The notes under the pieces were generated by a model that had not been told where the DNA came from, ran no database searches, and worked only from the letters and a program-made list of their open reading frames with translations. Both the position numbers and the translations under genes were made by a program. A stretch of DNA of 35,289 bases from Candidatus Enterousia sp. (lineage in GTDB: Bacteria; Pseudomonadota; Alphaproteobacteria; Rs-D84): assembly GCA_045634405.1 (NCBI GenBank), contig JAZRAD010000049.1, positions 1-35,289 of the forward strand, read 5' to 3'. Shown piece after piece: positions 2,707 through 32,332 of the stretch; position 1 is the stretch's first letter; each line of letters starts with the position of its first letter.

Positions 2707-3417
2707 ATGAAAAAAAATATGATATTTACGATTTTATCAATTATATATTCAACCGCTGCGGCCAATGCTGTTGACTGGTGGAATCAGGCAACCGTATGTA
2801 AATACGATACAAGACCATGTTATACCACAATGGGTGCAGGCTTTGACCCTGAAATATGGGACGTAACAGCAGGTTGCCGTGGCATGAAATATATCTGTCC
2901 AAATGCATTAAAGCAACAGTCACAAAACCCTGAATTAATCAGCATAAATAATATCAAACAAAAAACAAATGCAGATTATGACACAGAAACGCTTGGTGAA
3001 TCTGGCGATTGTTTCGGCAAAAGACACTCTAAAATTACTAAAGAAAATGTTTCTGTTATGGTCAATGGCGATTATGTAAATCTGTATTGTCATGGCATTT
3101 TAAACAAACCAAACGAAACATTAGCAGATGGTGAAATTATTTATAACCATGACGAACAACCAACTTGTGAATCTTTGAAAACAGATGGATATATCGCCGT
3201 CAAAAATGGCAAATGCGTTGGCAAATACATCGACGAATCAAAATATTACATTGATTGCGGTACAGATTTACTGCCTAAACGCCTTGTTCTGTTAAATGGT
3301 GCAGAAGTAACTACCAACAATACCGGAAACATAACAACACAAAAAGATGCAAAAAATTTGTTTGATAAAATGTTAAGTGTATCTCAAAAACAAAAGCAAC
3401 AATACTTTAACAAATAA
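2707..3417 (+). CDS. secreted cysteine-rich protein, unknown function
   Basis: AAAGGA SD at 2695-2700, 6 nt before the ATG at 2707. Signal peptide MKKNMIFTILSIIYSTAAANA. About 12 Cys in the mature part. Terminator follows directly. Confidence 0.75.
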   Translation: MKKNMIFTILSIIYSTAAANAVDWWNQATVCKYDTRPCYTTMGAGFDPEIWDVTAGCRGMKYICPNALKQQSQNPELISINNIKQKTNADYDTETLGESGDCFGKRHSKITKENVSVMVNGDYVNLYCHGILNKPNETLADGEIIYNHDEQPTCESLKTDGYIAVKNGKCVGKYIDESKYYIDCGTDLLPKRLVLLNGAEVTTNNTGNITTQKDAKNLFDKMLSVSQKQKQQYFNK

Positions 3418-3443
3418 AAAAACCGGCAATGCCGGTTTTTTTA
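3415..3443. terminator. bidirectional intrinsic terminator
   Basis: Hairpin aaccggcaatgccggtt flanked by an A-run on the left and a T-run on the right. Lies between convergent genes. Confidence 0.8.
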
Positions 3444-3872
3444 TTTAGTATTTTGTCTTAACTGTTTAACATAACCTACAATATCTTTATCAAATGAAAT
3501 ACGGCTGCGTTCAACCATCAATCTGTCTGCAAATCGTTGTGCTTGGCCGTTTTCTGCAATTTCTTTGACCGGTGTGCGCAACGCCAACATTGGTGTATTA
3601 TAATAGTGACTAAGATGCAAATTCGGATTCATACCATTTGCACGCAAAATATGTCTTGCCACATTTACATCTGATTTATTGGGAATAAAACAATATAAAT
3701 ATTCACGACCATTACGTGCACTTGTATAAAAAACATTACCAAACGATAAATACATCAACGCCTTGGCATCCTTATTCATATCACGATTTTCCAGTGCAAC
3801 AGCACTGCCAGAAAATAAATCTTTGACATAATCAATAACAACATATAAAACGTTTATTCTATTCTGCTTCAT
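3441..3872 (-). CDS. hypothetical protein (143 aa), no recognisable motif
   Basis: Clean ORF between the bidirectional terminator and an intergenic region with TTGACA-type promoter elements. No signal peptide and no family recognised. Confidence 0.6.
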   Translation of the reverse strand: MKQNRINVLYVVIDYVKDLFSGSAVALENRDMNKDAKALMYLSFGNVFYTSARNGREYLYCFIPNKSDVNVARHILRANGMNPNLHLSHYYNTPMLALRTPVKEIAENGQAQRFADRLMVERSRISFDKDIVGYVKQLRQNTK

Positions 3873-3950
3873 TATTTTACCTTATATAATATTATAGTTG
3901 GACTATTGTTTACTATAAAAGTTATTTTGTCAAGGACTCACACCCACAAA

Positions 3951-6900
3951 CTATATTCCCAATTTGTGGGTCATTTTTAACATAAATACAGATTCATTAC
4001 CAAATTTATCTGTATGATTTGGGTTTACACGATAAATAAATCCAAATGCACCATCTGTAAATTCACCGAATTTATGACGATAGGTTCCCATAAATCTTGT
4101 TTCGCGAACATCTGCCTGTAATGATAAGTCTGCCACATGTGTATCAACAATATTTAACTGCGAATTATCATCAACATCATACTTTGCATACGCGTATTTC
4201 AAGGAACCGTCTGTAATTGCCAATGGTTGTGAAACGCTGAATTCAAAATTTCCAATATTCGCACCAAGCGCAAATGCATTTGAATCAATATCTGTCAGCC
4301 CCAGTATAAAATTACCGGACGCATCTGATGTTGTGCGTGCAAATGTTGCGCGTGCAATAACCCCAATTTTATCAGAAAAATCATAACGCGTTTCAATATC
4401 TGTATATATTGTATCCCCTGCCCCCAAGTCTAATAAGCCATCGGAATACGCACCCAACAATGTATCAGATTCATTTGCCATACCAATCAACGCCTTGACC
4501 GACAACCTATCACCATTAAAGGCAACATAAGAATCAGCCCCCTGCATTAAACCAAGCTTTGCAGGCATATATTGTGATGATATCGTTGGGTCTGTTTCCA
4601 GAAGGCCTTCGTCTGTAATTGCCCCAGAAAATACACGACCACCAAATGCAAAGCGACCATAATTATATTCTGCATCAGACACAACTGCATTTGACGCCAA
4701 TCCCATAATTGGATTTTGCAAGCCACTGAAACGAGACACTCCGTCTGTTAAATAACGCTGATAAGACGCACCAAAATTCCAATTACCAGAATTATATTTC
4801 AAAGTTAAATTATCCAAACCACCCATATAATCATCATATGCACGTTCAGATGTTGCCATTGAAAAATCAATACTTCCAATTTTAACCGTCTGAGAATTAT
4901 CACGTACAGTCTTTAATTCTCCCAATACATCACCCATATACAACCCACGTGAATCAGTTGCACCAAATGCAAATTCATTTTCCCAAATACGTGGCACAGA
5001 CAATTTTCCATCTGTACTTTCCAGAACATCAAAGAACGGCGCACTGATTGTCGCACTACGTAAATTCAACGCGCCGGACGCACGAAAAGCAGTATTTGTT
5101 GCAGCACGCCAATACGCATCACCATTTGCAGACACAATCCTATCACCATCAAAGAAATAAACAGATGTTCCTGGTTTTGTTGCGCGTTCCAAATTTATCA
5201 AACCGTAACCAAAGACTTCGGCAAAGGCATCCAAATAATCCATTTTACCCTGACTTATATAATATGTATATTCTGTTGGCAAAATATACATATTCTGCAA
5301 ATAAGATACCAATGATTCTTCGGACATTGCCTTGCCTGTTGCATCTGTCGCCAACAACGGCCCATCCGCTGTCAATGCCAACAACGAGAAAACCTGTTTA
5401 TTTGATAAATAAGCAAACGCAGACTGCACCGCACCAACAGCACCTGCAACACTGGACACAGCCCTTTCATCCGTCATCCCTGCACCCGCAAAGCACCATG
5501 GATCAACATTTGATGTTCCACTGCCCGCATCACCACAAGCACGTGATTTATAATATTTTGCATTTTCGCCTTGACCAACTTGCCACTGCGATAACATATA
5601 CTTACCTGTTGGCGCAAAACCAGAAACATCTGTTGCTTCACTTGTACCCGATTTTGTTAAGCCAACACTAACCACCGACATAAAATTATATTTTGCATTA
5701 TCAAAAACCAACGGCACAGCGTTTTCAAATGTAGCACTTTGTACAACACCAGAATATTTACTGTCTGTTTCAGAAGCACCAGTTGCAAAAATCACCATTG
5801 GTTGAAAACTGGACCCTAATTTACCAAAGAAATTATACGCATCTGTACCAGGGAAATAAGCATCTTCCACCACATCATAATAATCATTTACATAATTAGA
5901 AAAAGTAGTCTGCTTGTTTTCACCAGACAACACATCATTTATTGTATTAGCATCTTTTGCATGCAACGATTCAACAACTGACACATTCGCAATTACACCT
6001 GGTCGTGAACGCCCACCAGATATATCACCAGCACTCCATAAATCGGCAGCATTTATTAATGCTTTGTAATTCATATAATCAACACTGCCTGCAACACCAG
6101 ATAGTGTTAATACGCCATCATCAGACATTGTATACATCTGATTTATAACACCATCAGCTTCACTATCAATATACAACTTGCCATTTGTTCCGATGTAACC
6201 TTTATACGTTTTTGGATTTTCAGTACCAGAATCTGTCGCAACAAAAGTATTTCCATCTTGCAGAACAGTCAAAGTTTCACCAAACAAGACAATTTCTGTT
6301 ATTTTTCCATTTGTTTGAGTATATGTACCTGTTATTTCTTCTGTTGGTGTAACAATACCTGTACCATTACCAGTGCGATAAATTGTCATCTGTCCATTTG
6401 GCATAAACCCCATAAAATCTGCATCTTTATACCCAGAATCACGTCCACCTACGACCTTGGCCAACAAATTATCTACAATTGATGCATTTGCATTATTTAC
6501 AACAGTTCCCCAACCTGCCAAATCAAAACTACTTAAAATAGATTCATCTTCAACTGTCACTGCATTTGTCAAAGTTTCTTCGCCGATTCCCAACACAATC
6601 TTGTTATTATAGTATTTACTGGAAATCATCGTATCATCAGCCTGATTTACCGCATCTTTATTCACAGTTGTCCACGGTATCAAAGTATCACCCAACGAAG
6701 ATTCTGAAATAACGCCATACTGAAAATTATCAGCATTTACACCATTTGATGTAACCAAAGCGACATTCACAGGTCGTCCACCCATAACCTGAATTCCGCG
6801 CCAATTTATATTTTTTGTTTCAATTGGCGCCAACACAGAATTACGTGGTGTACGCATTCCCATATACCCACGCGCCAAAGGAGAATAACCATGCATCATC

Positions 6901-20957: not shown

Positions 20958-23900
20958 TTAAAACTGACCACGGAATTTTATCATCCCTGTATGCGATGTA
21001 TAATCTTCGTGTAAATCTAAATCATACATTGCCGATAATTCAACCCCGTTATAAAATGCAGTCAATCCAATACCAAATTCTGCGCCAAATTTTGACAGTC
21101 CCTGACCTTCAATTGCATACGAAGAACCAACAGATGGGATTGTTACATTTATCTGTGACGCATCACTGATAAAGTCATATGTCGCAGCAGCATGCATTTC
21201 AGGACGGAATTTTATATTAGCATTTGAATCAATCATAAATGCATATCTTAATCCCGCAACACCTGTCAAGAAGTCAGAATCAATTGCAGCTACTTCATTA
21301 ACACCGTTGGTGTATTTATCCTGTGCAACATGCAAATAGCGCAGACCAAATTCTGGTGTCATACCAGTTGCATAGTCATATCCAGACATCAACTGAACGC
21401 CATAAGAATCAACATCATACAGACTTTCTACAAAAGCACCAAACGGATCTGAATTTTCTGTATATTCAGACATCGTATATGCCAATGTCGCATTTACGAA
21501 CCATTTGCTTGGCTGATATTGACCATACATAAATACAGTTTTACTGTCGATATCTGTTTTACGTGTACCAGATGTAACATCTGTATTATTGTACGCAAAA
21601 CCAACACCCAATGTGTATTTATTATCAATTATCGTATCAGCACCAAATGCAAATCCACGTCCAGAACCTTCAAAGACATTTGATAATTTAGATTTGCTGT
21701 AAACACCCTGGGCCCACAGACCATTCTGTTGTGAATCACCACCAGAACGCCCAACAGATGCAACCGCGCCCGACATACGATTTGACGCCAATGACATTAC
21801 ACGGCCAGCAACTGACATCGATGCAGATTGTGCAACAGTTTTATCTTCTGGATTTAATTTAGCAGCTTCTTCTGCCAACGCCTTGGTATCGCCAGAATTT
21901 AACAAATGCTGTGCAGCCAAAGAAATCTTTTGAATATTTTTATCAGCAGAATTTGCCAGCGCACTTACAACCCCAGCAGTCTGTGATGAAATATTTATAT
22001 CCTTGACCAAATCTTCAATTGGTTTAACAGATACGACAATGCCATCTTTGCCGTTATTCACAACATTATAAGCCTTGTCCATAATATTGATAGCAATATT
22101 ATTATCGCTTGTTTCATCAAATATTTTATATGTACCAGATGAAGCGACAGTCAAATTGATAACACCGCCACCAGTAATATCGCCATACAATTTTGCAAAA
22201 TCATACGAGCTTAGCGCAGATGCGTTTACTGTACCATCAATATTGATTGCATCTTGGATAACAGTTGCAGTTCCCATATTCATGGTTGCGTCTTTGGCAA
22301 TATTTAAGACACCTGTTTCACCTGTGATACCACTATCTATATTCAATGTACCAGATGTAACATTTAATGTTCCCAGATTGTAAATATCGTTTTTATATTT
22401 ACCTGCAAAATTATTTGCAAAAGTATTTGTTCCTGCAAAGTTTATTGTACCGCCTGCATCGTTATAGATTGCACCACCATACAATCCTGCCTTGTTATTC
22501 TTAAACGTATTTACACCTGTCAGATTGATAATACCATGATTAGTAGAATCAACACCTGAACCACCACCATAGTTTACATCAATACCGTTATAGATTGCGC
22601 CACCTGATTTTTGTGCTTTATTTTCATCGAATTCGGCATTATTGATATTTACAGTACCAGCATATACATTTGCAATACCGCCACCAAAATTAGCTGACTT
22701 ATTATATTCAAACAATGCAGCATCGATGTTCAGTACATAACCTTCGCCATGACGTGCAGATATTGCGCCACCACGTGCGCCCGATTCGTTATCTTCAAAG
22801 ACGACGTTTTTCAATGTTACATCAGATGTACCACCAACCAATATAGCACCACCACCGTCAGATTGTTTTACATCCGCAGTAACACCACCCTCTGTAATAG
22901 CAGCAGTATTTTCACTGAACACAGTATTTTCAACCAGTACTTTACCATACAGCCCAGCTGCACCTGCGTCTGCACTGGCATGGTTTTCAGAGAATACAGC
23001 GTTTTTAATTACTGTTTCAGAACCAACATTCTGCATATCAGAAAAAGCGCCACCCACATATGCAATATTTTCTTCAAACATAACAGGATTTTCTGTTGTG
23101 CCCAAAATGTCTAATTTTCCTGCGTAATTAAAGATTGCGCCACCCATTGCATAGTTGTCACCAGAAATAGACTTATTATTTTTAAATTGACCGCCATTAA
23201 TTGTTAAAGTTCCGCCATCATTATAAATTGCGCCACCCCACCAATTAGTTTTATTTTCATAAAACGATCCATTATTAATCGTCATCGTACCTGTATTAGC
23301 AATTGCGCCACCAAAACTGGTACCTGTATTCTTTTGAAAATAAGACTCGTTAACAGTCATTACGCCATCATTATAGATTGCGCCACCACTATGCTTGGCA
23401 ACATTATTTTCAAACACTGCAACAGCATTGCTTAAATCAACATTTGCCCCTGTGCCACCATTATAAATTGCACCACCAAAATTGCCTGCGATATTATCAT
23501 TAAATGTAACATTGCCTGCAAAATTCACAGCGGTCGAAGATGTAGTATCTGCATCTGTCCAATTCATAATCGCACCACCATTGACACCGGCTTCATTTTC
23601 ACTGAACAAAGTTGTACCGATAACATTCACAACCGCAGAAGAATCTGGGTCATCTGTACGCGATTCAATTGCGCCACCGTTCTGCAAAGCGATATTATAT
23701 GTAAATGTATTTTTACTGCTGCCATCTGCAAAACCAATTGTTAATTCTGCAGTAGATTCAGCACCACGGTTATACAATGCACCACCGCCATATTTATAAT
23801 ACTTGCTTTCTGAAGCAACCGCTGTTTGATGGTTTCCTGTGAACAGATTTTCTTTGGCCAAGAAACTCATATCTCCGGCATTAAATATTGCACCACCATA

Positions 23901-25085
23901 CATGTCTGCCATACCGCCTGAAACACTTATTTTATTAGCCTGAAGAACCATATCTGATAAAACAGTAGAATTTACAAATATACCACTGCCCGTATCAACC
24001 TTATCACCACTGAACGAAATATTACCAGTTGTTCTGAAATCTACCAATCCACCGACAAGAGCATCTTTGCTATATTCTGTACCTGGGCTTGATATTTTTG
24101 CATTTACAAAAGTAATATTGCCATCACCGTTATAAAAAATCTTTTTTTGTTCATCTGTTGTACTATATCTGTTATTCAAAACAACATTTTCAAACTGCAC
24201 ATCACCACCAAATTTAACTGTGCCATTATTGTATAATGTAAATTTGCTACCATTATTGGTACTAAACAATACATTTTCAGATTGAGACAAATCCAACGTT
24301 GCACCATTTTCAACATCTATACGTGAAGCATTTTGCACAACAAAATTATTTGCTTTAATAGACGTATATCCATCAGAAGCATTATACAAACCGTTCTTGA
24401 TGTTTTTTGGTACATTTGCATTTGCGATATTCAAATTTGACGCATTAATAACAACATTATTTGCAACAACGTTTGTACCATCTAAGGTCAAATTAACGTT
24501 ATCTGCACTGAAATTTCCAGCGACAACTGTATCATCACGATGTGCGAACAAAGACAAACCGTACGCCATCTTTAAATAATTTTCGTCTTTTGAAACATCA
24601 AATCCTGTTTTTCCAATGATTGTTTCAAGACTGTCATTCCAAACAATTCCAGCCTGTTTGGCGATATCAACATCTTTGTATGATACTTCGCCTTCTTTTA
24701 GTTCTGTATCTGCCCAATTAGACTCGCCATCTGTACCTGCAACTTGCCAATTATAAACAAATTCTTCGCTTTCCCCTAATTCACGCAAAGTCAAATTAAC
24801 AGGTCCAACATACAAACTAGGCTTTTTACCAGCAATACCAGCAATATTCACAGAACGACCGACCACATTATATTCTGGAAAGTCATTTCCACGATCACCA
24901 TTTATCACAGAGACTCGTCCACCAATTGCTGAATTATTTGCAACATCATAATCCAAATTTAAATCACCAAAAACCCACGCATTACCAGATGTATTCGGCA
25001 AATCTGCCACGGCCGGCATAACAACCAATGCAGGCAAAACGCTACAAACTTTTAATATTTCAGATAAATGTTTGGTATTTGACAT
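20958..25085 (-). CDS. polymorphic-membrane-protein-like (GGAI/FxxN repeat) autotransporter
   Basis: AAAGGGGG SD 6 nt before the ATG at 25085. Signal MSNTKHLSEILKVCSVLPALVVMPAVA. At least a dozen GGA[IL]xN repeats interleaved with F(S/E)xN motifs. C-terminal ~280-aa beta domain ends ...GMIKFRGQF (terminal Phe). Confidence 0.9.
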   Translation of the reverse strand: MSNTKHLSEILKVCSVLPALVVMPAVADLPNTSGNAWVFGDLNLDYDVANNSAIGGRVSVINGDRGNDFPEYNVVGRSVNIAGIAGKKPSLYVGPVNLTLRELGESEEFVYNWQVAGTDGESNWADTELKEGEVSYKDVDIAKQAGIVWNDSLETIIGKTGFDVSKDENYLKMAYGLSLFAHRDDTVVAGNFSADNVNLTLDGTNVVANNVVINASNLNIANANVPKNIKNGLYNASDGYTSIKANNFVVQNASRIDVENGATLDLSQSENVLFSTNNGSKFTLYNNGTVKFGGDVQFENVVLNNRYSTTDEQKKIFYNGDGNITFVNAKISSPGTEYSKDALVGGLVDFRTTGNISFSGDKVDTGSGIFVNSTVLSDMVLQANKISVSGGMADMYGGAIFNAGDMSFLAKENLFTGNHQTAVASESKYYKYGGGALYNRGAESTAELTIGFADGSSKNTFTYNIALQNGGAIESRTDDPDSSAVVNVIGTTLFSENEAGVNGGAIMNWTDADTTSSTAVNFAGNVTFNDNIAGNFGGAIYNGGTGANVDLSNAVAVFENNVAKHSGGAIYNDGVMTVNESYFQKNTGTSFGGAIANTGTMTINNGSFYENKTNWWGGAIYNDGGTLTINGGQFKNNKSISGDNYAMGGAIFNYAGKLDILGTTENPVMFEENIAYVGGAFSDMQNVGSETVIKNAVFSENHASADAGAAGLYGKVLVENTVFSENTAAITEGGVTADVKQSDGGGAILVGGTSDVTLKNVVFEDNESGARGGAISARHGEGYVLNIDAALFEYNKSANFGGGIANVYAGTVNINNAEFDENKAQKSGGAIYNGIDVNYGGGSGVDSTNHGIINLTGVNTFKNNKAGLYGGAIYNDAGGTINFAGTNTFANNFAGKYKNDIYNLGTLNVTSGTLNIDSGITGETGVLNIAKDATMNMGTATVIQDAINIDGTVNASALSSYDFAKLYGDITGGGVINLTVASSGTYKIFDETSDNNIAINIMDKAYNVVNNGKDGIVVSVKPIEDLVKDINISSQTAGVVSALANSADKNIQKISLAAQHLLNSGDTKALAEEAAKLNPEDKTVAQSASMSVAGRVMSLASNRMSGAVASVGRSGGDSQQNGLWAQGVYSKSKLSNVFEGSGRGFAFGADTIIDNKYTLGVGFAYNNTDVTSGTRKTDIDSKTVFMYGQYQPSKWFVNATLAYTMSEYTENSDPFGAFVESLYDVDSYGVQLMSGYDYATGMTPEFGLRYLHVAQDKYTNGVNEVAAIDSDFLTGVAGLRYAFMIDSNANIKFRPEMHAAATYDFISDASQINVTIPSVGSSYAIEGQGLSKFGAEFGIGLTAFYNGVELSAMYDLDLHEDYTSHTGMIKFRGQF

Positions 25086-25285
25086 AAAAAGCCCCCTTTC
25101 TTTGATATGCTTCTTATTCATAGCACATAAAAATTCATAAGCAATATAAATTTTTACTAAAATCAATCTACAAAAAAACAATATTGCCTATTTATTAGCT
25201 ACAACATAATTGTAAATTCCCGTATTCGCTTACGCTGTGTCGAACCAGTGCAACATATTGTTGCATGGTACAAACCAATATAAAT

Positions 25286-26434: not shown

Positions 26435-26508
26435 TGGTTGGGGCAGCTGGATTCGAACCAACACTGACGGAGTCAGAGTCCGGAGTTCTACCGTTAAACT
26501 ATGCCCCA
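26435..26508 (-). tRNA. tRNA-Gln (anticodon CUG), CCA encoded
   Basis: Hand-folded cloverleaf: acceptor TGGGGCA/TGCCCCA, 3-bp D stem GTT/AAC, anticodon stem CGGA/TCCG, loop CTCTGAC (anticodon CTG), T arm GTTGG-TTCGAAT-CCAGC, discriminator A, CCA. Architecture mirrors E. coli tRNA-Gln. Confidence 0.95.
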
Positions 26509-26518
26509 AGCACGGCGG

Positions 26519-26547
26519 ATTATAAGGCTTTTTTATTTCCAATGCAA
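26519..26547 (-). promoter_or_regulatory. sigma70 promoter of tRNA-Gln (copy A)
   Basis: Minus-sense TTGCAT (26547-26542), 17-nt spacer, TATAAT (26524-26519). The -10 ends about 10 nt upstream of the tRNA 5' end. Confidence 0.7.
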
Positions 26548-26563
26548 GCAGAAAGTTAATCCC

Positions 26564-26584
26564 CATGTAAAAAATATGTAAAAA
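26564..26584 (+). repeat. ATGTAAAAAATATGTAAAA motif, copy 1
   Basis: catgtaaaaaatatgtaaaaa. Contains an internal direct dyad ATGTAAAA-N3-ATGTAAAA. Confidence 0.9.
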
Positions 26585-26827: not shown

Positions 26828-26850
26828 CACATGTAAAAAATATGTAAAAT
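26828..26850 (+). repeat. ATGTAAAAAATATGTAAAA motif, copy 2
   Basis: cacatgtaaaaaatatgtaaaat, about 60 nt beyond the stop of the last operon gene. Confidence 0.9.
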
Positions 26851-26910: not shown

Positions 26911-28188
26911 CTAACTAGATTTTTTTACGTTTTTATTATTAGATTGTTGCCAACGTTCAAAAACAGTTTGAGCAGCAAAACTCTTTAAAAATTTTTCTGG
27001 GTTTTCACACATTTCTCTTTCTATCTCTCTTTCTGCCCCTTCTTTATATCTAGTAGCCAGAGATTTGTTGCCCATTTTTTCCTGTCCCATAAAAGTATGG
27101 TTTATTATTTTTCTGTCCTTTATCCAGTTCATATATTTTGCAATTTTTGCCAGATGACTAGCAGTAAATTTCATGTCTCCATATTTTGCAACAATAATGG
27201 GTTTTATTTTTGCTACCATATCCGTTGGTAAGATATTTTGTGGGGTAGCAACCATTACGACTTTATCTTTTTTGGCCAATTGTTCAGCAATAACAGGATC
27301 ACTTATGAAAATAGCTGTCTGTCTAAAATCTTCGTCCGCAATATTTTTATACGGAACTATGCGAACTTTCAGTTTAAAAAATGGACTCTCCTGAACAGAT
27401 GCAGGCAGTTTACCATAAAAATCCTTATGAAAATCATCTAGTTCTTGACTTATAATGGGTTTAGAAAAATCTTGAGAGAATTGTATTGCGGACGTTAGTA
27501 AAGTTTGTAAAGAAGAATCTAAGCCAAATTCAGTTTTTAGTATATGTTCATAACAATACAGCCAAGCTTGACAATGACCATATGTATAGTCGTCAATATT
27601 ATTTAATTGATGTTCTATTAAATCTCGTGCTTCCTTAAAATAAAGAATTAAAGCAGCAAAGGCTTCTAAAAACCTTTTGTCATACTTTTTGGTTACATCT
27701 TGATCGCTACGAAAAATCTGAAAACACTTAGAATAGTCGAACAAGTATATTTTGTCTGCATTTTTTTCTGTATAATTCCAACCATTTTTTTCAAAAATCG
27801 CATGAAACAATGATGTAAAACCAATAGTCATTAAAACAATAAAACTTTCCGTCTTAAAGGTAGTTAAGGGATTGTTGTAATGTTGTACAGCAGACAATAT
27901 AGCATTTTTAGATTTTTCTAAAAGCTTTTCACATAGATAAGAGTTTTGTGATTTCAAACGAGTCTGAGAGAAAGATTTTTTAAATTGTTCTAACGATACT
28001 AAACTTCCAAAGTTATCTATTGGTTTATAATATTTGCCATTTCGACGAACAACATCACCTACTTTCCACAAACTTTTTTCCGTCGTTTTTACAGTCCACC
28101 CAGAGGCTTCTGATAACTGAGATAAGGTAAAGCTTGTGTGGCTTTTTATAAATTTATAAGCATTCTCAATTTTAGTAGTTTGTCCCAT
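26911..28188 (-). CDS. 425-aa protein: N-terminal wHTH-like region + DUF3644-like core, fourth gene of the R-M operon
   Basis: LLEKSKNAILSAVQHYNNPLTTFKTESFIVLMTIGFTSLFHAIF resembles, from memory, the DUF3644 signature (A..A.E.YNkP...fr.E.F.iL...aWE.LLKA). 9-nt gap from the upstream gene. No nuclease or NTPase motif recognised. Confidence 0.65.
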   Translation of the reverse strand: MGQTTKIENAYKFIKSHTSFTLSQLSEASGWTVKTTEKSLWKVGDVVRRNGKYYKPIDNFGSLVSLEQFKKSFSQTRLKSQNSYLCEKLLEKSKNAILSAVQHYNNPLTTFKTESFIVLMTIGFTSLFHAIFEKNGWNYTEKNADKIYLFDYSKCFQIFRSDQDVTKKYDKRFLEAFAALILYFKEARDLIEHQLNNIDDYTYGHCQAWLYCYEHILKTEFGLDSSLQTLLTSAIQFSQDFSKPIISQELDDFHKDFYGKLPASVQESPFFKLKVRIVPYKNIADEDFRQTAIFISDPVIAEQLAKKDKVVMVATPQNILPTDMVAKIKPIIVAKYGDMKFTASHLAKIAKYMNWIKDRKIINHTFMGQEKMGNKSLATRYKEGAEREIEREMCENPEKFLKSFAAQTVFERWQQSNNKNVKKSS

Positions 28189-28197
28189 GATTTACTC

Positions 28198-28740
28198 TTA
28201 ATTACTTTTTGGTACCGGCAAGCCAAATTTCTGCAGTGGAATGTATTCAAAGTAATATGAACAACCTACAGATACGATATAATCCAGCACATCTTGATAA
28301 CAAGCCTGTTTGAACCAATCACTCAGCAGATAAATATATTCTATTTCCATATTCAATTGTGCCAACAGTTTTTTATATTGTTTCTTCTTAAAATCACATG
28401 TTTGCAATTTCTCGTCCACGGATCCAGCAACACGTTGAAATTTACATTCAATTACAAAAAATGTGTTGTTTATGACAACATAAATAGAATCGTCTGGTAG
28501 CAACTTTTTTGACAATATAGATTTCCAATCTATGCCACGATATTCTAAAAACTTATACAATGCATTTTTCTTGAAAATTGATGCAACTTCTTCGCCTTTG
28601 TACAAGACAGAAACCCAGCCACGTTTGTCATCAGCACAATCATACCCTGGTTGATTGCACAGGAATGTACGCAGATCTGTCTTGCCCTCAAAAACTAATC
28701 CTGTTTTAGTGTTTGCACCACCAATACCATTTGCTTTCAT
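28198..28740 (-). CDS. small PD-(D/E)XK-type nuclease candidate (putative restriction endonuclease)
   Basis: LLPDDSIYVVINNTFFVIECKFQ gives D-x14-E-x-K in the beta-strand context typical of PD-(D/E)XK. 3-nt gap after the MTase gene. The 180 aa do not resemble R.DpnII as I recall it. Confidence 0.6.
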   Translation of the reverse strand: MKANGIGGANTKTGLVFEGKTDLRTFLCNQPGYDCADDKRGWVSVLYKGEEVASIFKKNALYKFLEYRGIDWKSILSKKLLPDDSIYVVINNTFFVIECKFQRVAGSVDEKLQTCDFKKKQYKKLLAQLNMEIEYIYLLSDWFKQACYQDVLDYIVSVGCSYYFEYIPLQKFGLPVPKSN

Positions 28741-28743
28741 TTT

Positions 28744-29523
28744 TTAATCCTTCTTTTCAGATGCATCATATAATCTTTTTTCAGCCAATTCAACAAATTG
28801 TGATTCCATGTCTATGCCGACAAAGCGGCGACCATGTTTCAGTGCGGCGACACCGGTTGTACCACTGCCCATAAACGGGTCCAGAATCAAATCACCAGGA
28901 TTAGTTGATGCCAAGACTATGCGCTCTAATAATTCCAATGGCTTTTGTGTTGGGTGTTTCCCGTGTATCTTTTCAGCCTTGGTCGGTGTGCCAATTGCCC
29001 AAACACTACGCATCTGACAGCCCGGCTTTTTAATAAAATCTTTTGGGAAATCACCGTTCTTCATCGCTTCATAGTTGAAAGTATGCTTAGATTTTTTGTT
29101 CTTTCTGGCCCACAGCAATGTTTCATGACTGGCTGTAAAATAGCGACAAGACATATTCGGGCTGGCATTTGGCTTAAACCAAGTAATGTCGTTCAAGATA
29201 TGAAAGCCCAACAACTGCATCGCATAGCCGCATGAATAAATGCTGTGATATGTACCACTGACCCACAATGTTCCATTTGGCTTTAATACACGATGACAGG
29301 CACACAGCCACTTTTTATGAAACTCAAAATCTTCACTAAGGCCATGCGATTTATCCCAATCGCCTTTGTTCACAGAAACAACACAACCATTCTGGCAGGT
29401 GATACCACCATTAGACAACATGTATGGAGGGTCCGCAAAAATCATGTCAAAAGTGTTTTCGGGGATTTCAGCTAACTTTTTCAGGCAATCTTCACAATAA
29501 AGTCGATACTGTTTCTTATTCAT
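28744..29523 (-). CDS. beta-class N6A/N4C DNA methyltransferase, DpnA (M2.DpnII)-like
   Basis: Motif IV first (DMIFADPPYMLSNGG), then VSVNKGDWDK, KHPTQKP and motif I DPFMGSGTTGVAA. The order and strings match the DpnA / M.MboII-type beta class. Confidence 0.9.
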   Translation of the reverse strand: MNKKQYRLYCEDCLKKLAEIPENTFDMIFADPPYMLSNGGITCQNGCVVSVNKGDWDKSHGLSEDFEFHKKWLCACHRVLKPNGTLWVSGTYHSIYSCGYAMQLLGFHILNDITWFKPNASPNMSCRYFTASHETLLWARKNKKSKHTFNYEAMKNGDFPKDFIKKPGCQMRSVWAIGTPTKAEKIHGKHPTQKPLELLERIVLASTNPGDLILDPFMGSGTTGVAALKHGRRFVGIDMESQFVELAEKRLYDASEKKD

Positions 29524-30499
29524 AATTTGTAATCAAAAGTTCCCGAATTGCATCACGACCGTCCGCCTTGGAGTTTATCAGTCGCTTGGCCATAATGCGA
29601 TTTATCTTATAATCTTGGTACAGGTCGTCAAAGAATGGGTCATCAACATAGTTCGTTGGGTCGGAATTACTTAACATCTGCAAAGCCCCCATTTGATGAC
29701 AGATATCAAAAACGTTCTTTAATCTGATTTGTTCATTGTCATCAAAGTCACCAACCGCATACGAATTAAATGACGAAGTTTCACGAATTGGGCGGTATGG
29801 AGGGTCGTAGTATATAAATGTGTCATCCGTCACATACTTTGATGTATCGCCAAAGTCGCCCTGAATAATGGTTGCAATCTGCAAAGCATCAGACACATTA
29901 CGCAGGTTTTCTTCATCCAATATGCGTGGGTTTGTATATTTGCCCATTGGAACATTGAACTTGTTCTTGCTGTTCACACGGAACAGGCCATTAAAGCAAG
30001 TCCGATTCAAGAATATCGTCAAAGCCGCACGGCGAACAAAACCGGTACGATAGACATTTGCATCGATATCTTTGTCGAATTCATTATATTCATCACGACG
30101 TGCGTAATAGTATTCTTTTTGATTCTCGGTCAACCGATATTCAGTCTGCAATTTGGTCAGTTCGACAATCAATTCTTCAACATTATGCTTGATAACATTG
30201 TACAGAATAACCAATTCAGGATTGATATCGAACAAATATGCTTCTTGGATTGGGTATTTATTATAGATATCAAAGAATACGGCACCGCCACCAACAAACG
30301 GTTCAACATAGCGTTTGACGCCACCCATTTTCAGTTTTAATGGCAATTTAGGTTCGATTTGATCCAATAACTGACCCTTGCCACCAGCCCATTTCAAGAC
30401 AGGTTTGCAATCAACATAATCCGGCAATCTGGCAGGTATTGCAATCACGTATTCCTTTCCTTTAACTTGATAATAGAAAATATTACCAGATTGATCCAC
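29516..30499 (-). CDS. Dam-family (alpha-class, D12) N6-adenine DNA methyltransferase, DpnM-like
   Basis: LKWAGGKGQLL, EPFVGGGAVFF (motif I), FNGLFRVNSKNKFNVP, YYDPPY (motif IV). 8-nt overlap with the next gene. The start is non-ATG (GTG at 30499; alternative GTG 17 codons downstream after a GGAAAGGAA SD). Confidence 0.9.
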   Translation of the reverse strand: MDQSGNIFYYQVKGKEYVIAIPARLPDYVDCKPVLKWAGGKGQLLDQIEPKLPLKLKMGGVKRYVEPFVGGGAVFFDIYNKYPIQEAYLFDINPELVILYNVIKHNVEELIVELTKLQTEYRLTENQKEYYYARRDEYNEFDKDIDANVYRTGFVRRAALTIFLNRTCFNGLFRVNSKNKFNVPMGKYTNPRILDEENLRNVSDALQIATIIQGDFGDTSKYVTDDTFIYYDPPYRPIRETSSFNSYAVGDFDDNEQIRLKNVFDICHQMGALQMLSNSDPTNYVDDPFFDDLYQDYKINRIMAKRLINSKADGRDAIRELLITNYE

Positions 30500-30619: not shown

Positions 30620-30644
30620 TTCCTGTGTAAAAAATATGTAAAAC
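30620..30644 (+). repeat. right copy of TTCCTGTGTAAAA fused to ATGTAAAAAATATGTAAAA-like motif, copy 3
   Basis: ttcctgtgtaaaaaatatgtaaaac. Confidence 0.9.
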
Positions 30645-30775: not shown

Positions 30776-30816
30776 GGAGTCAGAGTCCGGAGTTCTACCG
30801 TTAAACTATGCCCCAA
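30776..30816 (-). pseudogene. tRNA-Gln 5' fragment (positions 1-40, with 1 upstream nt)
   Basis: 41 nt identical to 26469-26509. Identity stops inside the 3' strand of the anticodon stem. There is no T arm or acceptor 3' strand. Confidence 0.9.
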
Positions 30817-30826
30817 TGCGTCGCAG

Positions 30827-30855
30827 ATTATAAGGCTTTTATTTTATCAATGCAA
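30827..30855 (-). promoter_or_regulatory. second copy of the tRNA-Gln promoter (copy B), now facing the R-M operon
   Basis: Minus-sense TTGCAT (30855-30850), 17-nt spacer, TATAAT (30832-30827). Same geometry as copy A. Confidence 0.65.
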
Positions 30856-30865
30856 GCACAAAGTT

Positions 30866-32332
30866 TTACATATCTTTTTGACAGTCGCATTTTGCCCATG
30901 ATTTGTATGATTGATATTCTATTTCTTTGAAACGAAATTCTGTAAAACCAATCAACTCTGCAATCAAACTCTCTTTTTCCGAATGCGTGAATTTGCGTGG
31001 CTTATGTTTTGCCCTAAATTCAGAACGCATGGCACGCAATTGCGCAACTTGATTCGCATTTGGCATCGAATGTGCCAATAATTTCTTATCAGTACGCACA
31101 ATACTGTTCTGACGCAGGTTTATATACGACATATCGCCCGGCCCTTCGGTGTAATTTTTGTATTTAAATCCAACAAGACCCATTTTTTCAAAGAACAATA
31201 TCATTCTTTGAAAGAACAGATTTTCATGCGTATAAACATCAAACAATGTTTCTTGTTTTAATTCTGCCTGCATTGCGTCCGATGATATGTTGCCTACAAT
31301 TGGTTCACACACCCAATCAAATTCCCACGGCACATCAATATCGGAATCCAATACACGCTGACGCGCAGATACGATTTGTTTTTCAAATTCTGCCTTGTCT
31401 TCAATATTCAAGACGCGATTAAAATCTGCGATTTTATCAGCACACATATACTGAAATAAAATGCCCATATAGTTTTGCACACTGTGGTCATTTAAATCTG
31501 GAATTTCTGCCCAGCGACCAGAAGATAAATTCACAGGTATAATTATCGGCTTGGTAATATCAATATTTGGGTCGCGTTTCCATTTGCCCTCGTTCAAATT
31601 CGCCTGTGCATTTATCAGTTTTCCGAAATGCGTCAGCGGACGAAAATAATCAAATTCATAATATGTTCCATGATATGCAACCAATGGATTACCATCTGCC
31701 CCCATCAATACAGGCGACAACCAATCTGGGATTTCCGGCATTGAAAAAGATTTCCCATCATGTTCTAACTTGAAAAAACCTGCATTTGGCATACCGGCAC
31801 GTGTCCAACGCGCAGGCGTCAATTTCTGAATTATAACCTTGGCCACACCAGTATGAGTTGCAATACCAATTGTTTTTGCATCTGTATTTTTCACAATTTT
31901 ATTCAACGTATCCAAGACACGTTTCACAAACTGTGTATGACTTTCGCCGTTTGGCGGCATATAGTCATCTTGGACAACCAAATCAAAGGGTATATATACA
32001 ACATCACCTTTTTGTTTGATTGGTGTATCTGCTGAATCTTCTGTCAAGCGGCAGATATTACCACAAAAATCCCCAAAATTATGTTCACGCAAACCATCAT
32101 CTGTTATAATTTCTGTATCATTATTTCCCACCACGACACGTGCAGTATCCAGCGCACGCGATGAAGACGACGAATAAACACAATCAAACTTAACATCATT
32201 TAATTTTTTCGCCAAAGCATGCGCCTGGGCAACCCCATTTTCATTTAATGGAATATCCAGCCAGCCCTGCATACGCTTTTCCACGTTATAGTTTGTTTCA
32301 CCATGCCTGAAAATATATAATGTCTTTTTCAT
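30866..32332 (-). CDS. histidine phosphatase (PGM/cofactor-dependent mutase superfamily) fused to a ~290-aa C-terminal domain of unknown function
   Basis: N-terminal LYIFRHGETNYN (RHG motif), SSSRALDTA, and a second His region ATHTGV. The C-terminal half (from about residue 195) has no motif I can name. Confidence 0.8.
   Translation of the reverse strand: MKKTLYIFRHGETNYNVEKRMQGWLDIPLNENGVAQAHALAKKLNDVKFDCVYSSSSSRALDTARVVVGNNDTEIITDDGLREHNFGDFCGNICRLTEDSADTPIKQKGDVVYIPFDLVVQDDYMPPNGESHTQFVKRVLDTLNKIVKNTDAKTIGIATHTGVAKVIIQKLTPARWTRAGMPNAGFFKLEHDGKSFSMPEIPDWLSPVLMGADGNPLVAYHGTYYEFDYFRPLTHFGKLINAQANLNEGKWKRDPNIDITKPIIIPVNLSSGRWAEIPDLNDHSVQNYMGILFQYMCADKIADFNRVLNIEDKAEFEKQIVSARQRVLDSDIDVPWEFDWVCEPIVGNISSDAMQAELKQETLFDVYTHENLFFQRMILFFEKMGLVGFKYKNYTEGPGDMSYINLRQNSIVRTDKKLLAHSMPNANQVAQLRAMRSEFRAKHKPRKFTHSEKESLIAELIGFTEFRFKEIEYQSYKSWAKCDCQKDM

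Follow-up and report, generated by a model that had tools for sequence, protein, structure and literature searches.

A probable GATC restriction-modification island with a portable HEPN defense gene in Candidatus Enterousia

A contig assigned to Candidatus Enterousia sp. (JAZRAD010000049.1, positions 1 to 35,289) was analyzed over its 35,289 nucleotides (nt), here called the window. It carries four consecutive genes on the minus strand, which encode two DNA methyltransferases (MTases), a putative nuclease of 180 amino acids (aa), and a 425-aa protein with a HEPN domain. We consider it probable, at roughly 70%, that these genes make up a small mobile island in which a GATC restriction-modification (R-M) module is joined by an independent, portable HEPN defense gene, rather than a new two-part nuclease. 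A preliminary description of the locus had argued from the tight gene spacing for one functional unit, possibly a two-component nuclease. That proposal did not hold. In a neighborhood sample of 80 species-level loci with a homolog of the 180-aa protein, each compared with the window's four proteins, none carried a homolog of the 425-aa protein (0/80), and the 425-aa family was found apart from the nuclease and from GATC MTases.

The methyltransferases and the 180-aa nuclease

The four open reading frames (ORFs) have the coordinates and spacing given in the preliminary description (Table 1): the two MTase genes overlap by 8 nt (29516-29523), and gaps of 3 nt (28741-28743) and 9 nt (28189-28197) precede the nuclease gene and the 425-aa gene, respectively. 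A terminator search of the minus strand found no intrinsic terminators between the four genes; the sole strong terminator on that strand lies past tRNA-Gln, and the cassette is probably transcribed as one operon. GC content declines along the cassette, from 0.40-0.42 in the MTase genes to 0.35 in the nuclease gene and 0.315 in the 425-aa gene, and these steps are consistent with a mosaic origin.

Table 1. Coordinates of the cassette genes, island borders, repeated motif, and neighboring genes in the window
Feature	Position (nt)	Strand	Remarks
Dam/DpnM-like alpha-class N6-adenine DNA MTase	29516-30499	minus	longest ORF 327 aa; relatives called at 310 aa
Beta-class N6/N4 DNA MTase, DpnA position	28744-29523	minus	259 aa
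180-aa PD-(D/E)XK nuclease, putative	28198-28740	minus	PF20472
Catalytic motif of the 180-aa nuclease	28441-28494	minus	D-x14-ExK
425-aa HEPN defense candidate	26911-28188	minus	single gene; PF12358 and PDC-S19
Winged helix-turn-helix of the 425-aa protein	27964-28188	minus	aa 1-75
HEPN/DUF3644 domain of the 425-aa protein	27454-27936	minus	aa ~85-245
HEPN signature of the 425-aa protein	27610-27627	minus	Rx4H
Left island border	30776-30865	minus	truncated tRNA-Gln copy and promoter-like region; first 40 nt of tRNA and ~50 nt upstream
Right island border	26435-26557	minus	intact tRNA-Gln(CTG), 26435-26508, and upstream region; ARAGORN; Rfam tRNA 62.9 bits
18-nt motif, upstream of first MTase gene	30626-30643	minus	exact copy
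18-nt motif, downstream of 425-aa gene	26832-26849	minus	exact copy
18-nt motif, upstream of tRNA	26566-26583	minus	exact copy
488-aa protein gene	30866-32332	minus	histidine-phosphatase PF00300, residues 5-198
1407-aa autotransporter-like protein gene	20958-25181	minus	many GGAI-type (Pmp-like) repeats
ORFs of 150 and 135 aa	25416-26303	minus	just beyond tRNA-Gln

The first MTase was matched in profile searches with Pfam and NCBIfam by PF02086 (8.2e-61) and by the dam model TIGR00571 (2.7e-84). Its best match in the PDB was DpnM (2DPM, 9.5e-54), followed in second place by E. coli Dam (4.6e-32), so in class and in relatedness to DpnM it is the enzyme that a DpnII-type cassette carries. The second MTase matched PF01555 (6.6e-63) and the PADLOC MTase_II profile PDLC03371 (4.6e-98). 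Its nearest solved relative is the GANTC enzyme CcrM (6PBD, 1e-61), although it falls far short of the CcrM equivalog cutoff (254 bits against 830), and it is a candidate ortholog of DpnA; a gonococcal homolog has been called DpnIIB-like (PMC4269198). The order of the genes is that of dpnM-dpnA-dpnB. The pair of DpnM-like and DpnA-like MTases seen in the preliminary description is therefore upheld, with 2DPM as the best match for the first enzyme and a beta-class enzyme in the DpnA position for the second.

Neighboring MTases were a regular feature of the 180-aa family. At 74 of the 80 sampled loci one or both of the MTase classes, Dam-like and beta, were encoded nearby and usually adjacent: both classes at 28 loci, the beta-class enzyme only at 31, and the Dam-like enzyme only at 15. 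Neither was present at the remaining six, five of which end at a contig edge just upstream. That the nuclease is conserved while it pairs interchangeably with two unrelated MTase classes fits a restriction enzyme that cuts at a site protected by both.

No other 4-nt palindrome in the window is as depleted as GATC, with 22 occurrences observed against 103 expected (observed/expected ratio [O/E] 0.21). GATC is also the lowest palindrome over 70 loci carrying the 180-aa family, where O/E was 0.55 when pooled and 0.41 at the median. Divided by MTase partner, GATC O/E was 0.34 at loci with both MTases, 0.71 with the beta-class enzyme only, and 0.53 with the Dam-like enzyme only. Such strong avoidance of GATC in host DNA is a signature of restriction pressure. 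For GANTC, the corresponding range across partner classes was 0.73-1.06. A GANTC specificity of the CcrM/HinfI kind is disfavored because GANTC is undepleted in the window and no more than mildly reduced at other loci, against the strong depletion of GATC. Judged from these sequence patterns, the 180-aa protein is most likely a GATC restriction enzyme.

Within the 180-aa protein, the D-x14-ExK motif that had been noted earlier was recovered as D83(/D84)...E98-C-K100, and D83, E98, and K100 were invariant in all 52 aligned homologs (52/52). The protein scored 24.7 bits against PF20472 (PDDEXK_11), for which the gathering cutoff is 23.7, with an alignment confined to residues 92-112; a precomputed match to PF20472 is present in most of its homologs. 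The AlphaFold2 (AF2) model, with a predicted local distance difference test score (pLDDT) of 82, has a beta-beta-alpha-beta core (strands 85-90 and 93-100, helix 115-129, strand 132-139). Top Foldseek matches to this model were mostly PD-(D/E)XK proteins, namely XisH, the Lassa arenavirus endonuclease, the BspD6I small subunit, BstEII, BsoBI, and MUS81-EME1.

The family comprises 6754 homologs and occurs in at least 592 GTDB species. Its hosts are gut, host-associated, and environmental bacteria, and identity is 60-97% across Alphaproteobacteria, Akkermansia, Campylobacterota, Bacteroidota, Elusimicrobiota, Patescibacteria, Clostridia, and others. No homolog was matched in a phage collection, NCBIfam had no model for either the 180-aa or the 425-aa protein, and searches of PDB chain sequences with both proteins returned only noise.

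A relationship with the DpnII family, if there is one, would be distant. The preliminary description had judged the 180-aa protein to be unlike DpnII and MboI, and the searches agreed with it: PF04556 (the DpnII family) gave no match at E<=1 in Pfam, no PADLOC model matched, REase_II included, and hhalign assigned a probability of 0.4% to an alignment of the 180-aa profile with the DpnII-family profile. The local hhalign alignment does place IECKFQ..GSVDEKLQT, from the catalytic strand of the 180-aa protein, on the DpnII-family segment IETNFYGSGGSKLNET, so that the pattern IEcKF..GS..KL faces IEtNF..GGSKL. This likeness in sequence is a possible hint of distant shared origin and no more. Two further candidates for the identity of the 180-aa enzyme were rejected: pneumococcal DpnIII, which is Sau3AI-like and works with a C5 methylase, and HrgA/DUF511, which is a separate family of ~310-320 aa. 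R.HpyAIII (HP0091, H. pylori) is a possible counterpart of the 180-aa enzyme; the accounts of it that were consulted give neither its size nor its family. A literature search found no papers on PF20472/PDDEXK_11. The family apparently is widespread, unstudied, and catalogued only as "PD-(D/E)XK nuclease".

One member of the neighborhood sample lies in the leuS/drg (dam) locus of Neisseria gonorrhoeae (L090; NZ_CP119140.1, 5933-16482; locus 3197-5550). There the DpnI-like drg gene comes first, followed by a frameshifted DpnA-like MTase gene and then by a truncated or frameshifted homolog of the 180-aa nuclease with 52.7% identity. The remnant appears to be what decay has left of the pair formed by the beta-class MTase and the 180-aa nuclease. 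Here dam has given way to Drg, which is specific for methyl-GATC (PMC4269198, PMC6789123); these published accounts of the gonococcal drg locus note that the MTase is truncated and make no mention of a nuclease remnant. The record NZ_CP119140.1 is a 2.17-Mb chromosome that was deposited as a plasmid.

The 425-aa protein and the slot behind the nuclease

DUF3644 (PF12358; E=2.6e-25, residues 88-243, profile positions 1-156 of 183) was the sole Pfam domain found in the 425-aa protein. It is preceded by a winged helix-turn-helix (wHTH) and followed by a divergent C-terminal domain (aa 246-425). In the AF2 model the N terminus consists of helices 6-16, 22-29, and 33-42 and a beta hairpin at 47-56, which supports the wHTH, and the model is helical across residues 81-221. 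The wHTH-like N terminus and DUF3644 core described previously were thus both corroborated. The same description had seen no catalytic motif in this protein, which was wrong: a HEPN signature of the Rx4H type is present as R188-D-L-I-E-H193. This motif is invariant in an alignment of 24 close and distant homologs and in another of 36 wHTH-bearing homologs that reaches down to ~21% identity; K92, N105, P107, and E192 are also invariant in the latter.

When the whole model was submitted to Foldseek, only the wHTH was matched (MarR/IclR/Sso10a-type), in local alignments of low significance. The C-terminal domain includes a stretch, residues 278-315, with pLDDT below 60. The clade to which the window's protein belongs lacks the acidic and lysine consensus of the wider family (..AVEFV.. 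/ ..IKEK..) and has an extra insert of ~30 residues. PADLOC matched five PDC-S19 profiles to the protein (best 1.9e-29, residues 87-336). These profiles cover only the HEPN domain and the middle region, leaving out the wHTH and the C-terminal ~90 residues.

DUF3644 was placed in the HEPN superfamily as the EC042_2821 family, which has the architecture wHTH-HEPN-C-terminal domain and is found in R-M operons (Anantharaman et al. 2013, PMC3710099). The window's protein resembles this family in its wHTH, its DUF3644 HEPN domain with Rx4H, and its C-terminal domain of ~180 aa. It differs in that the C-terminal domain of EC042_2821 is described as a novel restriction endonuclease (REase) fold, whereas that of the window's protein is poorly modeled and lacks the family's acidic and lysine consensus. 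As far as the model allows, this domain may be an REase fold, dead or otherwise.

The match to PDC-S19 assigns the gene to one of 145 PADLOC candidates that were drawn from genes embedded in known defense systems. Such candidates may comprise one gene or several, and the window's version is a single gene that matches five of the profiles; PDC-S19 itself is a candidate, and a literature search found no papers on it. Two relatives with experimental support share a DUF3644-type HEPN as the N-terminal module of a single defense gene. HEC-08 is an anti-phage gene that requires the histidine of its HEPN Rx4-6H motif (Payne et al. 2024, bioRxiv 10.1101/2024.01.29.577857). Ishtar, also a single gene, brings about the loss of plasmids, acts on plasmid RP4, and combines an N-terminal HEPN with a C-terminal domain of five to seven strands and three helices (2026 preprint, 10.64898/2026.07.06.735840). 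The HEC-08 profile, searched as part of a library with HEC models, gave no match to the 425-aa protein at E<=1, and the protein has no CxxC clusters. Ishtar, unlike the window's protein, has no wHTH, a distinction that is drawn by description only.

Homologs of the 425-aa protein were found in varied company. The family yielded 25 matches in an indexed search and 387 clusters in an exhaustive one, compared with 6754 homologs of the nuclease. Homologs with 99% and 78% identity occur in the same four-gene block. One at 65% lies past a Zorya-like ZorA/ZorB/DUF8245/UvrD cluster, one at 60% stands alone in an integrase/Bro-N island, one at 61% has a Type ISP enzyme next to it within an integrase island, one at 54% is near a C5-MTase system, and one at 29% adjoins an Eco57I/MmeI-type enzyme, an HNH protein, and RmuC. 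The Zorya-like cluster was seen in L003-L006 (~2400-7780 in L003), where genes for a ZorA-like MotA protein, an OmpA-family ZorB-like protein, DUF8245, and a UvrD-type helicase stand directly upstream of the 65% HEPN homolog.

The same separation was evident from the side of the nuclease. The five closest loci (L010, L011, L012, L013, and L084) encode nucleases 92-97% identical to that of the window, none has the 425-aa gene, and at the nucleotide level they resemble the window only as far as the stop codon of the nuclease gene. The preliminary description had accepted that its claim would fail if the 180-aa protein were a known, characterized REase family and the 425-aa family showed no conserved linkage to it or to MTases. 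Conserved linkage between the families was indeed lacking, which goes half of the way to this refutation; no biochemical characterization of the 180-aa family was found.

Junction alignment showed that homology between cassettes runs out within the final codons of the nuclease gene. The next gene usually begins 1-25 nt downstream, and each such gene has its own ribosome-binding site. The occupants of this slot differ from cassette to cassette. A DUF3644 HEPN gene is present in the window, L007, and L091, and an ApeA-type HEPN gene (PF18862, with a C-terminal R-NVIV-H; PDC-S58) in L010, L011, and L084, 1-12 nt after the nuclease gene. L018 has a gene whose product shows a weak, sub-threshold likeness to the small HEPN family pEK499_p136. 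Other occupants are a GmrSD_N/NsnA-like protein in L020, a GmrSD/HEC-06-like gene that abuts or overlaps the end of the nuclease gene in L066 and L067, and proteins of no recognized family in L016 and L017; L013 has only a terminator-like hairpin. The ApeA-type proteins, whose embedding in R-M operons is noted in the literature, belong to a separate HEPN family, in which the domain is C-terminal, and share no detectable sequence similarity with the 425-aa protein.

This variability of the slot, together with the 0/80 co-occurrence, indicates that the 425-aa gene is an alternative cargo. It is one of several swappable cargoes and not a nuclease subunit or specificity factor, and the pattern is that of embedded or appended defense genes already in the literature. 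The preliminary description had also offered an uncharacterized second defense layer riding on the R-M module. A layer that rides on R-M fits these data; "uncharacterized" was an overstatement, given the 2013 account of HEPN proteins in R-M operons, PDC-S19, and HEC-08 and Ishtar.

Borders and surroundings of the island

The four genes are bracketed by a direct repeat, perfect over 41 nt (30776-30816 = 26469-26509), which continues for ~50 nt at 80% identity (26504-26557), so that the right copy as a whole spans 26469-26557. These limits give an island of ~4.3 kb, within which no integrase was found. The repeat duplicates the 5' half of the tRNA; at islands, the duplicated part is usually the 3' half. 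L091, a metagenomic contig, matches the whole island including the tRNA at 94.8% identity but its flanks at 72.8%, which implies that the island moves or is homogenized as a unit. L012 matches the window at 92.8%, and the similarity of both L012 and L091 begins at the left border.

An 18-nt motif, TTTTACATATTTTTTACA, occurs in three exact copies where 0.02 would be expected (Table 1). It consists of two TTTTACA heptamers 11 nt apart, and is confined to the island and its edge; an incomplete copy in inverted orientation lies close to 30862-30884. Of the exact copies, the one ahead of the first MTase gene and the one ahead of the tRNA both recur in L091, L092, L093, and L096. In L012 the former of these two is retained; L094 and L095, from which the MTase region is missing, retain the latter. 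The motif might serve as an operator, as part of a promoter, or in recombination.

The gene for the 488-aa protein abuts the left repeat. Its product has the histidine-phosphatase domain followed by a C-terminal half of ~290 residues with no assigned domain. L091 lacks this gene at the syntenic position, which points to a second variable insertion at this spot. On the other side of the island, the ORFs of 150 and 135 aa gave no match in Pfam, NCBIfam, or PADLOC, and L091 has a different ORF of 175 aa in their place. A 1110-aa gene in L091 is related to the gene for the 1407-aa autotransporter-like protein and encodes Chlam_PMP (faint) and Autotransporter domains.

Proposed function, alternatives, and significance

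In the scheme that we infer, for GATC cleavage, ribonuclease (RNase) activity, and trigger alike, the island would provide two layers of defense. The two MTases would methylate GATC, and the 180-aa nuclease would cut unmethylated GATC in incoming DNA, filling the place held by DpnII/MboI-type enzymes in the classical cassette. The 425-aa HEPN protein would stay latent until it senses, through its wHTH and/or C-terminal domain, a cue derived from infection or from a plasmid. Once activated, it would cleave RNA through R188/H193 and halt propagation of the phage or plasmid, in the manner of abortive infection (Abi). The first layer has its closest parallel in the S. pneumoniae DpnII cassette and the MboI and LlaDCHI types, with which it shares the order Dam-class MTase, beta-class MTase, endonuclease, DpnM as the closest relative of the first enzyme, and the avoidance of GATC. 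The window departs from the DpnII cassette in its endonuclease, which has 180 aa and belongs to PF20472 rather than being a DpnII-family (PF04556) enzyme of ~288 aa, and in the fourth gene appended to it.

Several points weigh against this reading. Support for GATC specificity is indirect and comes through depletion and neighboring genes, and among solved structures the beta-class MTase is closest to CcrM, a GANTC and not a GATC enzyme. The PF20472 match of the 180-aa protein covers just 21 residues, and the PD-(D/E)XK matches to its model are generic and weak, all with E>=0.005. A DpnII-family REase stands beside the 180-aa nuclease at some loci, as detailed below, and the nuclease could have another role. 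As for the HEPN assignment, whole-protein Foldseek recovered no solved HEPN structure for the modeled 425-aa protein, the family profile found nothing among PDB sequences, and the PDC-S19 match is a match to a candidate family only. Finally, the 9-nt spacing and the presence of several HEPN-type genes in the same slot could mean functional coupling.

Among the alternatives, all of which we regard as unlikely, the strongest is one in which the 425-aa protein acts as a guard similar to PrrC. The MTases or the nuclease would hold the HEPN protein inactive, and it would be set free to act as a suicidal RNase once an anti-restriction factor of a phage has put the R-M system out of action. Such a model has been proposed for R-M-linked HEPN families (Anantharaman et al. 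2013, PMC3710099). The genes of the cassette are tightly packed with no terminator between them, and DUF3644, ApeA-type, and, weakly, pEK499_p136-like HEPN proteins share the slot behind the same nuclease. However, homologs of the 425-aa protein with 54-65% identity sit in Zorya-like, Type ISP, C5-MTase, and integrase contexts that lack this R-M module, the slot also accepts non-HEPN genes (GmrSD-like or unrecognized) or no gene at all, and HEC-08 and Ishtar, which are related through DUF3644, each provide defense from one cloned gene. PrrC-EcoprrI and RloC resemble the window's arrangement in having a HEPN RNase gene within or beside an R-M operon. They differ from it in that an N-terminal ABC-ATPase is fused to their HEPN domain and they are tied to Type I systems, whereas the 425-aa protein has no PrrC-type ABC-ATPase sensor domain, its partner is of Type II, and that partner is not conserved.

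The evidence bearing on the nuclease allows a second alternative, to which we give less weight: the 180-aa protein might be an accessory GATC-linked nuclease, nicking in the manner of MutH or acting on hemimethylated DNA, in a cassette that serves mainly for methylation. A DpnII-family REase (PF04556) lies directly beside a 180-aa-type nuclease at eight of the 80 loci (L039, L088, L072, L058, L056, L068, L085, and L022), and at L039 the family match is as strong as 2.8e-111. Yet these eight loci are clusters of two MTases and two nucleases that read as two adjacent GATC pairs of MTase and restriction enzyme, and at approximately 66 of the 80 loci the 180-aa protein is the sole nuclease detected with the MTases. 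The sequence is conserved across phyla to a degree that is uncommon among REases, and no PADLOC REase_II model matched, both of which favor an accessory role. Pulling in the other direction are the strong avoidance of GATC in host DNA, the decay of the pair in gonococci that carry the methyl-GATC-cutting Drg, and the weak likeness of the catalytic strand to the DpnII family.

The two-component nuclease, with the 425-aa protein as the DNA-binding or specificity subunit of a 180-aa catalytic subunit, is very improbable: the 9-nt spacing and the wHTH domain would suit it, but the two genes co-occurred at none of the 80 loci, cassettes with 92-97% identical nucleases included, the 425-aa family is found apart from the nuclease and has its own invariant HEPN site, and the family sizes (6754 for the nuclease; ~25 to 387 for the 425-aa protein) are far apart. 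Hardly credible is a role for the 425-aa protein as transcriptional regulator of the R-M operon, analogous to a C protein, which the N-terminal wHTH and the threefold tandem-heptamer motif of 18 nt might suggest, since its gene lies downstream and not upstream of the would-be targets, is missing from the majority of such cassettes, encodes invariant HEPN residues that point to an enzyme, and belongs to a family that accompanies unrelated systems.

We therefore favor a GATC R-M module with an independent HEPN cargo. A bolder version is doubtful: that the slot is a dedicated docking point at which unrelated HEPN RNases were convergently recruited as guards wired to Type II R-M systems, and that PF20472 is a biochemically undescribed lineage of minimal GATC REases in hundreds of species. 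To our knowledge, guard coupling between HEPN proteins and R-M has been shown only for Type I systems.

The pieces of the island are of known kinds, and the presence of HEPN proteins in R-M operons was reported in 2013. The analysis proposes a likely GATC-restriction function for a very large family (6754 homologs) and finds decayed remnants of the cassette at the neisserial dam/drg locus, which has been well studied. It also provides a clean natural case of accessory defense genes swapped at one junction behind a conserved R-M core, and this precise exchange of cargo supports "guilt by embedding" as a method of discovery. The four-gene cassette, with its natural three-gene and alternative-cargo variants, would be a compact test bed for whether an R-M-linked HEPN protein acts alone or as a guard. 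What remains of interest is the widespread nuclease family, the precise swap junction, and the candidate status of PDC-S19.

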